Assembly (NCBI GenBank): GCA_965262915.1
Contig: OZ253564.1
Location: 3,744,001 to 3,808,000, forward strand
Source of the DNA: Candidatus Spongiisociaceae bacterium
GTDB taxonomy: Bacteria; Actinomycetota; Acidimicrobiia; Spongiisociales; Spongiisociaceae
Reading direction: 5' to 3'
DNA: 64,000 bases
How positions within the stretch are numbered: position 1 is the first letter of the stretch; each line of letters begins with the position of its first letter. The notes under the pieces are model-generated. The model was not told the origin of the DNA. It searched no databases and was given only the letters and a program-made list of their open reading frames with translations. Position numbers and translations under genes: made by a program. This document shows positions 27,231 to 43,071 of this stretch, one piece after another.

Positions 27231-28196
27231 TTGAGTGAACCGGGCCGGATACGAACCGTGCTGGGCGACGTAGCGTCCGAGCCTTGGGGGATAACCAACG
27301 CCCATGCCCATCTGATGGGTGGCGCGGACACTTCGAAGCCCCCATTCGACACCACCGATGCGTCCGAGCTGATCATGACCCTCGACGACAGCCTGCCCGA
27401 ACTCGAGGACTTCGCCCGCGCCGGCGGCTTCTGCCTGGTGGACCTGACCCCCGCGAGCATGGGACGGGACCCGGCCGCTCTGGTCAGAGCCTCCGAGGAG
27501 ACCGGAGTGCACATCGTCATGGGAACCGGCATCTATCACGAAGCCCACCACCCCGATTCCATAGCCGGTCTGAACGACACGGAGATCGCCGAGATCCTCG
27601 TCCGGGACATCACCGAGGGCGTGGACGGGACCGGCATCCGGGCGGGCATCATCGGGGAGCAGGGAACCTTCACCGGCCCGATGACCGAGCGCGAGGCGGT
27701 GGTGTTCCGGGCCTCGGCCATGGCGGCCGTCGAGACCGGGTTGGCGGTCACCACCCACACCCACCTGGGGCTCAACGCGCTGGATCAGATCGATGTCCTC
27801 CTCTCCCAGGGCCTCGATCCGGATCGCATCGTCATCGGCCACCTGGACGACGGGGAGCCCGACCTCGACCTGATCCGGGAGATCATCGAGCGGGGCGCCT
27901 GGGCCCAGTTCGACGACATCGGATACGAGTACTACACCGAGCGGCTCAAGATCCAGATGACCACCGACGTGGTCCGGGCCCGCAAGCTGGCCCAGCTGGC
28001 GGAGGAAGGCCTCACGGGGCAGGTCATCCTCGCCAGCGACTTCGGCATGCAACGCCACCTCCGAGCCAGGGGCGGGCCGGGCCTCGTCGTGCTGGCCGAC
28101 CGGTTCCGCAGGACCGCGCTGACACAAGGTGTTCCGGTCGAGGTGCTCGACCAGTGCATGATCACCAACCCGGCGACCATGCTGACCATGCGGTGA
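27231..28196 (+). CDS. Phosphotriesterase-family (Php/PTER-like) hydrolase 1
   Basis: HAH, GRDP, MGTG.Y, GIIGE, THT, GHLD, FD.IG, ASD, NPA. Confidence 0.92.
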   Translation: MSEPGRIRTVLGDVASEPWGITNAHAHLMGGADTSKPPFDTTDASELIMTLDDSLPELEDFARAGGFCLVDLTPASMGRDPAALVRASEETGVHIVMGTGIYHEAHHPDSIAGLNDTEIAEILVRDITEGVDGTGIRAGIIGEQGTFTGPMTEREAVVFRASAMAAVETGLAVTTHTHLGLNALDQIDVLLSQGLDPDRIVIGHLDDGEPDLDLIREIIERGAWAQFDDIGYEYYTERLKIQMTTDVVRARKLAQLAEEGLTGQVILASDFGMQRHLRARGGPGLVVLADRFRRTALTQGVPVEVLDQCMITNPATMLTMR

Positions 28197-28293: not shown

Positions 28294-28523
28294 TCGCGAA
28301 AACTCTCCCCAACCGAGGGGTTGAACCTGTCACACCGCCACCCCATACTTGAGAGGTACCAAGCACCTGCGCGGTCGGGAAGTCGACGTCGGCCCGGTCG
28401 CCGGAGGGAACAAGATTCAGGAGCAGCAGCCCCCGGCAGGCCGGGCGAAGCACGCTCCGAACCCAGGAGAGGTGGTGGTGGGGGAGGGCCCGGCGGATCG
28501 AACCACCGCGGCGATTTTCGCGA
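28294..28523 (+). ncRNA. Candidate structured RNA / mini-element with internal promoter, copy A
   Basis: Homologous to 41775-42042 (inverted); TCGCGAAAA..TTTTCGCGA ends; TTGAAC-N17-CATACT; 27-nt identical block at 28471-28497. Confidence 0.6.
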
Positions 28524-28652: not shown

Positions 28653-29627
28653 GTGAGCTCCCAGAGCCGCATCCGCACGGTGACCGGCGACGTGCCCTCG
28701 TCTTCGTGGGGTTTGACCAACGCCCACGCCCATCTGGCTCTCGGCGTGGAGGAGCAGAGCCATCCGGAGTGGAGCGACACCGCCGAGCGCTACAGCGACC
28801 ACGTCCTGTCCGTCGGGGACACCCTGCCCGAACTCCGGGCCTATGCAGAAGCCGGGGGATCATGCCTGGTCGATCTCACTCCGATGGGCTTGGGGCGGGA
28901 CCCGACCGGCCTGGTCGAAGCCTCGGAGCAGACCGGGGTGCACATCGTGATGGGCACGGGCATATACCACGAGCCCTTCCAGCCGGACTGCATCGCCGGC
29001 TTGGGGGCTGTAGAGATCGCCGAGGTCCTCATCGGGGAGATCACCCGAGGTGTAGGAGGCACCGGCATACGGGCCGGGATCATCGGTGAACAGGGCACCT
29101 ACAAGGGGCCGATGACCGAGCGCGAAGCGACCGTGTTCCGGGCCTCGGCCATGGCGGCGGTCGAGACAGGGGTGGCCGTGTCCACCCACACCTACCTGGG
29201 GCGCAACGCTTTCGACCAGATCGACATTCTCACCGCTGAGGGGCTCGCACCCGAGCGGATCGTCGTCGGGCATCTCGACGACACCGAACCGGACCTGGCG
29301 CTGTTCCGCAAGATCATCGAGCGGGGCGCCTACGCGCAGTTCGACAGCATTGGATACGAGTACTACACGGAGACGCTCGGCGTGCAGATGAGTACCGATC
29401 GGGTCCGGGCCGGGGCGCTGCGGCAACTGGCCGAGGAGGGCCTGGCCGACCGGATCATCGTGGCGAGCGACCTCTGCCGGAAGCGGCATCTGACGGTGAA
29501 CGGCGGACCCGGTCTTGCTCATCTCATCACGGGTTTTCGCGAGCTGGCCGGGGAAGAGGGTGTTCCGGTCGAAGTGCTCGATCGATGCATGATCACCAAC
29601 CCGGCCACCGTCCTGGCGATGGTGTGA
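28653..29627 (+). CDS. Phosphotriesterase-family hydrolase 2 (close paralog of 27231-28196)
   Basis: Same motifs; long near-identical stretches (FRASAMAAVETG, IGYEYYTE, CMITNPAT). Confidence 0.92.
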   Translation: MSSQSRIRTVTGDVPSSSWGLTNAHAHLALGVEEQSHPEWSDTAERYSDHVLSVGDTLPELRAYAEAGGSCLVDLTPMGLGRDPTGLVEASEQTGVHIVMGTGIYHEPFQPDCIAGLGAVEIAEVLIGEITRGVGGTGIRAGIIGEQGTYKGPMTEREATVFRASAMAAVETGVAVSTHTYLGRNAFDQIDILTAEGLAPERIVVGHLDDTEPDLALFRKIIERGAYAQFDSIGYEYYTETLGVQMSTDRVRAGALRQLAEEGLADRIIVASDLCRKRHLTVNGGPGLAHLITGFRELAGEEGVPVEVLDRCMITNPATVLAMV

Positions 29628-31230: not shown

Positions 31231-31391
31231 GGGTCTGTCTGTGAAACGGCGGCGTGGTATGCGCCGTCAGCGGCGTTCCTCGCAAGGCCCGCCGACGAAG
31301 GCATACCCGCAGCGGTACGTTGAGGAGGCGGAACGCAGCGAGGGGCGCCGATGGCTGCCAGAGCACGGCAAGTTGTTTTGCAGACAGACCA
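31231..31391 (+). mobile_element. MITE-like palindromic repeat, copy 2 (161 bp)
   Basis: GGGTCTGTCTGTGAA..TTGCAGACAGACCA, flanked by CCAG and CTAG like copy 1. Confidence 0.8.
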
Positions 31392-31439
31392 CTAGATGGA
31401 GAGAGGGATGATGCCATCGAGCAGAACAGGACGGCTGCA

Positions 31440-32801
31440 ATGACCGGCCCACACGGACCCACCGCCGGAGCCGAGCTTCCGCAACTCGTGACGGAAGTGC
31501 CCGGGCCGGTCTCCCGGGCCGTGTTCAAGAGGGATCAGAACCTGGTGGCGGCCGGCAACTCGGCAGGATCGTTGTGGTCGGAGCTTGCCGTGGTCGAAGG
31601 GCGAGGGGCCATGATCACCGACGCAGACGGCAACCGCCTGCTCGACGCCTGCTCGGGCACCGTGGTGATGAATCTCGGTCACGGCCATCCGGCCGTGGCG
31701 GAGGCGCTCGGCCGCCAGGCCCGCCGGCTGACCCACTTCTACGACTTCGCCACCGAGGTCCGGGTCGAGTTCGTCGAGCTTCTCAAGAGCACCCTGCCGC
31801 GGGCCTTGGACGCCTTCCACCTGGCCAACTCCGGGAGCGAGGCGGTCGAGGCGGCTCTCCGCACCGTCCGGTCCGCTACGGGACGCCACGAGGTGATCGC
31901 CTTCCACAACGCCTACCACGGCCGCACCCTGGGGGCCCTCTCCCTGACCACCGGAGCCGGACGGGAGGGTCTCGGACCGCTGCTGCCCGGAGTCGTGCAC
32001 GCGCCGGCGCCCGACCCCACCGTGTCACCGGAGTCAGACGAGGCGCAGCGCGTCACCGAATGCGGGCGGCACCTCGATCGCCTGGTGTCGCAGGTACTCA
32101 CCGACCTGCCCGCCGCGGTCTTCATCGAACCCATGCAGGGCGCCGGCGGCATGCTCCCCATCCCGGCCGGATTCCTCGAGTTGCTGCGCCGTTTCTGCGA
32201 CCGGACCGGCGCTCTGCTCGTGTTCGACGAGATCCTCACCGGGGGCGGCCGGACCGGGCGGCTGTGGGCCTATCAACACTCCGGCACGACTCCCGACATC
32301 CTCCTGCTCGGGAAAGGCATCGGCGGCGGCTTCCCCCTGGGGATCGTGGCCGGGCCCCGCAGCGTCATGGACGCGGGACCCGGCGCCCAACCCACCCACA
32401 ACAGCAGCACCTTCGGAGGCAACCCCCTCGCCTGCGCGGCCGGGCTGGCTGCTCTGGCCGCGCTCCTCGACGAGGGCCTGGTCGAGAACGCCGCCCGCGT
32501 GGGCGGGCACCTGATCGAGGCACTGCGGGAGCGGTTGGCGCCCCGCCGCCATGTGGCCGATGTCCGGGGCCTGGGCCTGGCGATCGGAGTGGAGATGGTC
32601 ACCGACAAGACCACTCGCACGCCGGTGCCGGGCGACTTCATACGCGCGGCCCTGAGGGGGCTGCTGCGACGGGGCGTGGTCACTTCCAGCACCAGCCACG
32701 TGATGAGGATCACTCCTCCCCTGTGCCTGACGGTCCCCCAAGCCGACTATATAGCCGACGCAGTCGACGATACTCTGCTGGAGTTGGAACGGAACGCCTG
32801 A
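31440..32801 (+). CDS. Class III PLP aminotransferase (GABA/ornithine AT-like)
   Basis: DGNRLLD, LGHGHP, NSGSEAVE, YHGRT, EPMQGAGG, FDEILTGGGRTG, GKGIGGG, STFGGNP. Confidence 0.94.
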   Translation: MTGPHGPTAGAELPQLVTEVPGPVSRAVFKRDQNLVAAGNSAGSLWSELAVVEGRGAMITDADGNRLLDACSGTVVMNLGHGHPAVAEALGRQARRLTHFYDFATEVRVEFVELLKSTLPRALDAFHLANSGSEAVEAALRTVRSATGRHEVIAFHNAYHGRTLGALSLTTGAGREGLGPLLPGVVHAPAPDPTVSPESDEAQRVTECGRHLDRLVSQVLTDLPAAVFIEPMQGAGGMLPIPAGFLELLRRFCDRTGALLVFDEILTGGGRTGRLWAYQHSGTTPDILLLGKGIGGGFPLGIVAGPRSVMDAGPGAQPTHNSSTFGGNPLACAAGLAALAALLDEGLVENAARVGGHLIEALRERLAPRRHVADVRGLGLAIGVEMVTDKTTRTPVPGDFIRAALRGLLRRGVVTSSTSHVMRITPPLCLTVPQADYIADAVDDTLLELERNA

Positions 32802-41774: not shown

Positions 41775-42042
41775 TCGCGAAAAATGCCCCTGCAGGCCCC
41801 TCCGCCGGGCCCTCCCCCACCACCACCCTGCCAGGGCTCGGAGCGCGTTCTGCCCACCCGCAAGCGGGCCATCCGGTTCCAAGAAACTCGTGATCCCTCG
41901 GGCGGTCCGATGACGTCGGTTCGACACCGCCTGGGTGTTTGGTGCCTCCATAGTGCAACAGGACTGTGACAGATTCAACCCCCTCGTGACGCGGAGTCTC
42001 CCCGACTAGGAACCTCGCACCTGCCCATGCACCTTTTCGCGA
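41775..42042 (-). ncRNA. Candidate structured RNA / mini-element with internal promoter, copy B
   Basis: Inverted homolog of 28294-28523; TTGAAT-N17-CACTAT on the minus strand; identical block at 41801-41827; same 9-bp inverted ends. Confidence 0.6.
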
Positions 42043-42147
42043 CAACCTGGCATCTAGCCCGGCCGCCGAGGGTCTCCGCGGGACTCGCCCATCTCTCCGC
42101 TGCGGTATCGTCGCGTGGATCACCGCTTCGTCTCGTCGGGAGGAAAG

Positions 42148-43071
42148 ATGGCGCTACAGGTAATGACCGTGCGAGGACCCGTCTCGCCCGATGATCTGGG
42201 CCATACCCAGACACACGATCACATATTCTCCGACATATCGTGGGCACGCCATCGCTGGGTGGCGATGCCGATGACCGACGAAGTCCAGATGACCGAGGAG
42301 GTCGGTTTCTACAAGGATGCGGGCGGGGGCACCCTCGTCGACTGTATCATGGAACACATAGGCCGCAAACCGGAGGCGATGCGCCGCATCTCGGAGACCA
42401 CCGGCGTGCACATCGTGATGGGCACCGGCTTCTACCGGGAGCCCTATTACCCCGAGTTCGTCAACAAGTGGACAACCCGCCGACTGGCCGAGTACATCGT
42501 CGACGAGATCGAGCACGGCTGGGCCGACACCGGAGTCCGTCCTGGGATCATCGGCGAGATCGGTATAGACAAACGCTGGGTGCAAGGCGTCGAGGAGCGG
42601 GTCATCCGCGCCGCCGCCCGAGCCCACCACGCCACGGGCCTGGCGGTCACCACCCACACCCCCCCGCACACGGCTCTGCTGTTCCATGAGATCCTGCAGG
42701 AGGAGGGGGTGCCGCCCGACCGGATCATCTTCGGCCACTTGGACAACACTTTGGAGATGGACGAACTGGAACGCATCGCCCAGACCGGCGCCTACATCCA
42801 GTTCGACCTGATCGGGATCGAGTGGATAAACGCCGACCACCGGCGGGCCCAGTTCCTCGCCGAGCTGATCCGTCGTGGTCACCGGGACCGGCTACTGGTC
42901 GCCCAGGACATGCCGGCCCGGCCCCGCCTGATGACCAACGGCGGGCACGGATATCGCCACCTCATCGACAACTTCCTACCGATGCTCCGCAAGGAGGGAG
43001 TCGACGAGGACACCATCCATCACATCACCCACACCAACCCCGCCCGAGTCCTAGCGGTCGACGCAAGCTGA
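42148..43071 (+). CDS. Phosphotriesterase-family hydrolase 3 (Php-like)
   Basis: TVRGPV, HDHI, GTGFY, GIIGEIG, THT, GHLD, QFD.IG, AQD, NPARVL. Confidence 0.93.
   Translation: MALQVMTVRGPVSPDDLGHTQTHDHIFSDISWARHRWVAMPMTDEVQMTEEVGFYKDAGGGTLVDCIMEHIGRKPEAMRRISETTGVHIVMGTGFYREPYYPEFVNKWTTRRLAEYIVDEIEHGWADTGVRPGIIGEIGIDKRWVQGVEERVIRAAARAHHATGLAVTTHTPPHTALLFHEILQEEGVPPDRIIFGHLDNTLEMDELERIAQTGAYIQFDLIGIEWINADHRRAQFLAELIRRGHRDRLLVAQDMPARPRLMTNGGHGYRHLIDNFLPMLRKEGVDEDTIHHITHTNPARVLAVDAS

Follow-up and report, generated by a model that had tools for sequence, protein, structure and literature searches.

Two related intergenic units in a Candidatus Spongiisociaceae genome belong to a dispersed family of probable structured-RNA genes

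In this work, we analysed two related intergenic units, copy A (28294-28523, plus strand) and copy B (41775-42042, minus strand), which are alignable across ~230 nt and lie within a 64,000-nucleotide stretch of the genome of a Candidatus Spongiisociaceae bacterium (hereafter the window, i.e. positions 3,744,001 to 3,808,000 of contig OZ253564.1, assembly GCA_965262915.1). Copy A is flanked on both sides by genes of the phosphotriesterase family (PTE, PF02126). Copy B lies between a lipoprotein-like open reading frame (ORF) and a third PTE gene; it is oriented away from the latter and converges on the former. The three PTE paralogs of the window occupy positions 27231-28196, 28653-29627 and 42145-43071. 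In our view, A and B probably belong to a set of ~56 paralogous genes with signals of their own, which encode a structured non-coding RNA of ~165 nt that would act in trans and pair with itself. The parts of both copies are given below, with positions referring to the window.

28294-28302, plus strand: copy A, upstream TCGCGAAAA, inverted complement of the 3' TTTTCGCGA (sequence reading)
28314-28349, plus strand: copy A, promoter-like region, comprising CGAGGGG, TTGAAC (28321-28326), TGTCACA (28328-28334) and CATACT (28344-28349); family-wide conservation and 92% identity to the ortholog in the sister species G002
28355-28517, plus strand: copy A, predicted RNA; end-to-end match of covariance model R1 (125.4 bits, G000:C1:3772355-3772517)
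28357-28361 and 28364-28367, plus strand: copy A, 5' strands of helices P1b and P1a, respectively; P1 3' strand at 28471-28479
28371-28379 with 28393-28401, plus strand: copy A, helix P2
28385-28390, plus strand: copy A, self-complementary GACGTC at the tip of P2
28406-28412, plus strand: copy A, GGGAACA
about 28416-28424 with 28454-28461, plus strand: copy A, helix P3
about 28431-28445, plus strand: copy A, helix P4
about 28487-28514, plus strand: copy A, predicted terminator hairpin
28515-28523, plus strand: copy A, T run and TTTTCGCGA (sequence reading)
42034-42042, minus strand: copy B, upstream TCGCGAAAA, in a position not homologous to that of copy A
41950-41985, minus strand: copy B, promoter-like region, comprising CGAGGGGG, TTGAAT (41978-41973), TGTCACA (41971-41965) and CACTAT (41955-41950)
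41781-41946, minus strand: copy B, predicted RNA; R1 match (136.9 bits, G000:C1:3785781-3785946)
41827-41819, minus strand: copy B, P1 3' strand GGTGGTGGT
41775-41784, minus strand: copy B, T run and TTTTTCGCGA (sequence reading)
41783-41775, minus strand: copy B, TTTTCGCGA (sequence reading)

An earlier note, made from the sequence alone, had described a series of ordered blocks shared by A and B, and every one of them was found in its place in both copies. The 27-mer GGTGGTGGTGGGGGAGGGCCCGGCGGA has exactly two matches in the window, at 28471-28497 (plus strand) and 41801-41827 (minus strand), and matched twice in 0/100 shuffles. Likewise recovered was a pair of hexamers resembling a -35/-10 promoter with a 17-nt spacer, i.e. 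TTGAAC..CATACT in A and TTGAAT..CACTAT in B, so that both copies can be written as TTGAA(C/T), spacer and CA(T/C)(A/T)(C/A)T, and both end on a T run followed by CGCGA. The inverted ends drawn around the two units were only partly borne out: TCGCGAAAA and TTTTCGCGA are present in A and B, but the left TCGCGAAAA of copy B is not homologous in position, lying ~40 nt farther upstream than that of A, and no alignment joins the two. Within 90 nt upstream of the unit, TCGCGAAAA was observed in 39 of the 137 unique members on which our member statistics are based, vs 59 of 2000 random windows, and the one upstream of copy A has not been conserved at the orthologous G002 locus.

The spacer between the two hexamers measures 17 nt in 137/137 members, the -10-like hexamer conforms to NANNNT in 131 and the TTG positions of the -35 are kept in 117-128. 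The most invariant upstream letters are those of TGTCAC(A) within the spacer, kept in 110-136 members (124-136 for the TGTCAC columns alone). This motif, more invariant than the -35, and the TGAC before it make up an imperfect inverted repeat, TGAC-N3-GTCA, possibly bound by a regulator. Actinobacteria use weak -35 hexamers and a TANNNT -10. We call a putative promoter here because its position is conserved and because it agrees with this actinobacterial habit, and not from the strength of the consensus; each unit would then be independently transcribed from its own promoter-like part. At the other end, the longest 3' T run measures 4-5 nt in 129/137 members, the mean folding energy of 87 3' tails is -15.4 kcal/mol, and the 3' hairpin pairs the CCC of an invariant GGGCCC with a probability of 0.93-0.96.

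Our model of the RNA, ~165 nt in length, is closed by helix P1 and contains a long hairpin, P2 (8-9 pairs), and a third helix, P3, within which a variable hairpin, P4, is placed. P1a joins CACC with GGUG, and P1b joins (U)ACCA with UGGU(G), or GCCG with CGGU in the members of a second subfamily (see below). P3 is formed by CUCGGAAC with GUUCCGAG, and in other members by GUUCGAGGC with GCCUCGAAC, GUCGAGC with GCUCGAC, etc. Conserved unpaired stretches are AGGGAUCA, ACGCG and GGGGGNGGG. A CCGAG/CUCGG hairpin around GGGAUCA was also considered and given up for P3 (CUCGGAAC with GUUCCGAG), which covaries.

The helices were set by hand from per-sequence folds (ViennaRNA) and alignments, and then tested. 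With 26 members aligned plainly by MAFFT, the paired cells amounted to 81.2%, vs 22.7-43.1% when the 3' partners were slid by 1-3 columns; in the set aligned with R1 (99 members, matches from other genomes and other copies), 85.5% of 2564 cells were paired, vs 30.8-47.5% when slid. In this 99-member alignment, changes on both sides were found in 23 of the 29 pairs (362 such cells vs a shuffled mean of 135), and none of the five measures taken was reached by any of 500 shuffles. With 81-85% of cells paired vs 23-48% when slid, the compensatory changes are as expected of a stand-alone small-RNA gene, and they confirm the covarying stem described in the earlier note. RNAalifold predicted P2 and P3 independently on the R1 alignment; on plain MAFFT alignments, RNAalifold and averaged pair probabilities recovered little beyond P2, the sequence being G-rich with many alternative folds. 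In a profile alignment built from sequence only, the column pair with the highest mutual information was the P1b pair (A:U 61, G:C 55, G:U 7), and the suggested pairing of the 5' ACCA..CACC with GGTGGTGGT is thereby upheld as the strongest covarying pair of columns. The strand of the RNA is fixed because G-U pairs are frequent. Both copies were present in three DNA data sets, one of which (X6) carries a variant in copy A, 28398 T>C, by which a G-U pair in P2 becomes G-C.

Self-complementarity by Watson-Crick pairing over 6 nt or more was found at the tip of P2 in 111/137 members (shuffles: mean 22.7, maximum 37), and in 131/137 when G-U pairs were allowed (shuffles: mean 53.3, maximum 72). The forms observed include GACGUC, GGUACC, CGGUACCG, CGACGUCG, GGCGCC, GGCGUC (with G-U pairs) and others. 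At the locus of copy A, the tip reads GACGTC in the source genome and GGTACC in the G002 ortholog, i.e. four changes with the symmetry retained; substitution or, alternatively, conversion from a paralog may account for the difference. Such self-complementarity needs a second molecule or double-stranded DNA, because the two innermost letters cannot pair within one hairpin. We tentatively suggest, at somewhat less than even chances, that the hexamer is a loop-loop ('kissing') contact joining two RNAs of the same loop class. GGGCCC was also considered as a second self-pairing site and was ruled out, its CCC being paired in the 3' hairpin.

The source genome (G000) consists of a single contig of 5.05 Mb. 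A profile search (nhmmer, with a profile made from BLAST hits) returned 64 matches, 56 of them near full length; the earlier note had counted two copies, a number that falls far short of the actual one, while its idea of a multicopy element holds. Measured from the -35 through the terminator end, 52 of the 56 copies are 201-217 nt long, and four variants 265-279 nt. Subfamily 1 (31 copies, including A and B) has unique flanks. In subfamily 2, 24 extended copies have ~100 bp in common on each side. At two spots, opposite-facing pairs of the RNA gene lie 1.2-2.6 kb apart (G000:C1:2496756-2498400 and 2069470-2072264); the pair at G000:C1:2496756-2498400 brackets a single ORF of ~350 codons, from which both RNA genes point away.

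Outside the source genome, R1 gave 4-90 matches in 21 of the 29 genomes of the bacterial family, i.e. in 7/7 genomes of genus g1, 11/12 of g7 (22-90 matches) and 2/3 of g4, with no match in genera g2, g3, g5 and g6; 20 of the 21 RNA-bearing genomes had 16-90 matches and the remaining one had 4. Two near-complete genomes, G019 (g7) and G010 (g4), gave no R1 match, while their congeners have 4-90. Among 150 other genomes sampled across the class, for which stricter filters were used, none was positive (0/150). BLASTN with copy B gave matches in 18/41 related genomes. An exact-pattern scan over one genome per prokaryotic species retrieved at least 114 stretches, nearly all of them full-length units with the promoter part included; among the 80 matches listed, all titles that name a taxon name Acidimicrobiia or a taxon inside it, several of them Candidatus Spongiisocius or Spongiisociaceae. 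No pattern match was found in viral contigs.

The search against Rfam 15 agrees with the statement in the earlier note that the element belongs to no known family: the whole window had no hit at the gathering score, copy A none at E <= 10 and six other members none at E <= 1, and copy B gave chance-level matches only, to eukaryotic models. [quoted passage not shown]

Evidence for selection was obtained at the locus of copy A. In G002, a stretch of 1.9 kb around it aligns at 78% identity and holds, between the same PTE pair, an R1 match of 107 bits. The promoter part is identical at 35/38 positions (92%) and the RNA at 123/164 (75%), vs 52/120 (43%) for the upstream intergenic flank and 57/137 (42%) for the downstream flank. 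The locus of copy A has been inherited between species and is under purifying selection. Four further pairs of loci from different assemblies have both flanks in common, and an inverted repeat of at least 10 nt around the unit is absent in 68 of 71 loci from other genomes. In the contigs of three DNA studies, no junction skipping A or B was found, which is not a test of mobility; contigs bridge copy A in each of the three runs and copy B in one of them, X1, which may be the source sample of the assembly. The contigs of X5 and X6 break within the 27-mer repeat of copy B.

The common flanks of subfamily 2 have another history. They terminate in CTAGTGTCCYGA... and its reverse complement, and the same ends bound an insertion sequence of 1176 bp, of which the genome holds 12 exact end pairs (e.g. 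G000:C1:481212-482387). The sole ORF of this element encodes DDE_3 and HTH domains, which we take to be those of an IS630-family transposase and on which the family assignment rests; it is present in at least 11 intact full-length copies, and its stop codon TAG falls within the right terminal repeat of the element. One MITE was examined end to end and has TA within CTAG on both sides; TA inside CTAG is the target habit of IS630 elements. About 25 of the 56 copies in the genome are carried in such MITEs of ~400 bp with IS630-type ends, A and B being outside this set. In subfamily 2, ends matching an autonomous element, a TA/CTAG target and the lack of a transposase gene occur together, as expected of a MITE. 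A and B have only a 9-nt inverted pair, with no target-site duplication and no matching insertion sequence. In this genome, the RNA gene was captured between IS630-type ends and then multiplied. The IS630-type element is present in 6 of the 29 genomes of the bacterial family and in 0/12 of genus g7; we regard the MITE as a local carrier and not as the cause of the family, because the insertion sequence was not found in g7, where the RNA is equally numerous. As to the choice that the earlier note had left between a structured RNA and a mobile element, the RNA fold and the multicopy character stand and mobility is shown for the ~25 MITE-borne copies, the 9-nt ends of A and B being at most putative transposon ends.

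For several subfamily-2 MITEs, e.g. those near 2577000 and 4376200 of G000:C1, the CTAG in which they sit belongs to a palindrome, CACCCTCCTAGGAGGGTG, which is part of another repeat of ~100 bp (GACCGATGACATAATGCC...), so that repeats are nested. The window holds one more MITE-like repeat of ~160 bp (31232-31392), with ends GGTCTGTCTG...CAGACAGACC followed by CTAG, and pieces related to it adjoin several subfamily-2 MITEs. In the bin 31267-31747, contig depth was 477-1250, vs about 12-30 elsewhere, in three metagenome runs, with many contig breaks.

Gene context was assessed with our own GC3-based ORF picker (4658 ORFs, 82.5% of the genome covered). The 56 copies lie between tandem (28), convergent (18) or divergent (10) genes, and 36/56 copies have a downstream gene of opposite orientation and 20/56 a co-oriented one. 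No neighbour gene family was clearly enriched around the copies and no conserved ORF was found beside them. The genome encodes ~28 PTE paralogs (BLASTP on our ORF set), of which 4/28 flank copies (p = 0.004, uncorrected), three of the four being in this window.

Taken together, these data are best described by a self-contained gene, which would consist of a -35/-10-like promoter with a 17-nt spacer holding TGTCAC(A), the RNA, and a GC-rich hairpin followed by a short U run. The RNA would act in trans, most likely so because the genes stand alone and in either orientation to their neighbours. The hexamer at the P2 tip would join two RNA molecules of the same loop class, and AGGGAUCA, ACGCG and GGGGGNGGG would be the likely contact surface for a partner. 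The family would spread as DNA, with A, B and most copies elsewhere being stable loci, some of them at the same site in different species.

Several observations weigh against this description. A generic sigma-70/terminator consensus scan flags neither A nor B on the RNA strand, at least 9 of 12 promoter consensus positions are matched in only 33/137 members, and a T run of 4-5 nt is too short for the generic terminator scan; what stands of the promoter claimed by the earlier note is the family-wide conservation of the hexamers and their 17-nt spacing. On the side of the fold, the counts from the R1 alignment are fitted to the model and so biased toward its structure, P4 is the weakest helix (57% paired with MAFFT, 80% in the model alignment) and the outer pairs of P3 are weak (about 50-60% paired). 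The tip hexamer is equally a palindrome at the DNA level and possibly a protein site, with G-U pairs required for self-complementarity in a minority of members only (131 minus 111 of 137). The search for a protein partner was negative: neither CsrA nor Ro60 was detected in any RNA-bearing genome. Finally, some copies come and go like mobile DNA. In G002 and G006, the orthologous PTE gene has no counterpart of copy B within 1.5 kb, and none was found beside the best-matching PTE gene of G007 (76% identity); as G002 loses synteny immediately upstream of its PTE gene, gain and loss of copy B are indistinguishable.

This last point bears on the main rival, which we regard as rather unlikely, i.e. 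that the unit is selfish non-autonomous mobile DNA whose promoter and RNA serve its own spread, with only a few master copies functional, so that the conserved fold would mirror lineages of master copies and not a benefit for the cell. Dispersal in dozens of copies that have unique flanks would be expected of such an element, as would short inverted ends in a subset (39/137), the demonstrable mobilisation of ~25 copies as cargo of an IS630-type MITE, the absence of copy B from the corresponding sites of three sister genomes and a roughly neutral placement (28 tandem, 18 convergent and 10 divergent). However, conservation peaks inside the unit and is lowest at its ends, the reverse of a transposon; the orthologous locus of copy A lacks the left end but has promoter and RNA conserved, and 68/71 loci elsewhere are without an inverted repeat of at least 10 nt. 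The IS630 element is found in 0/12 genomes of g7, yet the RNA has 22-90 matches in 11/12 of them. Moreover, no conserved ORF adjoins the copies, and their internal segments show no excess complementarity to the flanks (1.58 vs 1.19 9-mers in common). Several of the most conserved blocks are palindromes in DNA (GACGTC/GGTACC, GATC, GGGCCC, TCGCGA and TGAC..GTCA), and a further reading takes them as binding sites for dimeric proteins and the unit as a cassette working at the DNA level, i.e. a movable promoter, terminator or insulator whose role is not based on RNA. The spacer motif TGTCAC(A), more invariant than the -35, and a slight surplus of copies between convergent genes would fit with this. 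We nevertheless hold it to be improbable, since P1, P2 and P3 keep their pairing by compensatory changes and with many G-U pairs, which is sensible only for RNA of this strand; furthermore, the CCC of GGGCCC is accounted for by the 3' hairpin, and 20 members have a self-complementary tip only through G-U pairs.

The two other explanations start from the genes around A and B. A cis-regulatory leader, i.e. a riboswitch or attenuator of the downstream gene such as the PTE genes next to A and B, is suggested by the position of copy A 5' of a PTE gene in the same orientation, by the four PTE paralogs flanking copies (4/28, p = 0.004 uncorrected) and by the terminator-like hairpin at the end of the unit, which resembles an expression platform. 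Its orientation largely refutes this reading: only 20/56 copies are co-oriented with the downstream gene, and copy B faces away from its PTE gene and converges on the lipoprotein-like ORF. As this single window accounts for three of the four PTE flanks and each copy has a conserved promoter of its own, which is unusual among leader families, we consider a leader very improbable. A decayed protein-coding gene or a gene for a small peptide is hardly credible: long ORFs do span the region, but they are spurious ones in GC-rich DNA, conservation follows helices and not codons, and the distances between anchors fall in all three classes modulo 3 (25/44/42, 18/45/29 and 18/40/46). The argument of the earlier note that a shift of frame speaks against a peptide is sustained by these distances, which cover 0, 1 and 2 modulo 3.

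Known types of RNA were also considered and rejected. A sponge of the CsrB/RsmZ type was discarded, as CsrA (PF02599) was detected in 0/21 RNA-bearing genomes and in 4 RNA-less genomes only; these are G008, G011, G012 and G016, of genera g2, g5 and g6. A bacterial Y RNA was discarded on the ground that Ro60 (TROVE, PF05731) was detected in 0/29 genomes of the family, while control genomes gave the expected matches. As for a guide RNA (omega RNA, bridge RNA or seekRNA), the units have no conserved adjoining ORF, no excess of 9-mers shared with their own flanks and no free guide, the RNA beginning in P1 and ending in the terminator-like hairpin; genes for TnpB, IscB and IS110 were not searched for.

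With our preferred reading of a family of trans-acting RNA genes, three kinds of systems can be compared. Sibling small-RNA families, reportedly including Qrr1-5 of Vibrio, LhrC1-5 of Listeria, and NsiR1 and Yfr2 of cyanobacteria, likewise have several paralogous genes per RNA that are apart from protein genes, and each has its own promoter and terminator, which are predicted parts here. They comprise 2-12 copies, mostly of short Hfq-type or single-hairpin RNAs at tandem or few loci, whereas here 16-90 dispersed matches (20/21 genomes) correspond to a multi-helix RNA of 165 nt with a self-complementary loop, and they have no sequence relation to it. Bacterial MITEs that carry promoters, terminators or small RNAs are said to include the Correia elements of Neisseria and the QMITEs of Coxiella. 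Subfamily 2 resembles them in being a non-autonomous element of ~400 bp with IS630-type ends, a TA/CTAG target and no ORF, which holds an RNA gene. In Correia elements and QMITEs, the transposon ends yield RNA or promoter activity as a side effect; here, in contrast, the RNA gene is the conserved core, free of a MITE in most copies and genomes, and the MITE is a late carrier. Lastly, self-associating RNAs are reported to include the HIV-1 RNA with its dimerisation initiation site and the homo-oligomeric bacterial OLE, ROOL and GOLLD. The likeness lies in a self-complementary hexamer on the tip of a long hairpin, the letters of which vary while the symmetry is retained; dimerisation would be a matter of inference here, unlike in those systems, and size, fold, sequence and multicopy organisation are unrelated.

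One step further, and in our view a long shot, the family may represent a new class of self-recognising RNA, in which dozens of paralogs in a cell would pair through 'address' hexamers in their loops (GACGUC, GGUACC, GGCGCC) and form dimers or larger particles confined to this mostly sponge-associated lineage. Dosage and pairing specificity would then depend on how many genes there are and on their loop class, and what results may be a ribonucleoprotein specific to the symbiosis. The loop variants would offer a natural series for testing self-recognition between RNAs, and subfamily 2 illustrates clearly how a MITE has captured and multiplied an RNA gene. Covariance model R1 detects members reliably and could be the seed of a new Rfam family, and the RNA would be a marker for this clade of symbionts, all knowledge of which comes from metagenome bins, in many cases of sponge origin. 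If the units are transcribed, a single bacterial family would hold 16-90 genes per genome for one uncatalogued folded RNA, which to our knowledge would place it among the largest paralogous small-RNA gene families of bacteria.

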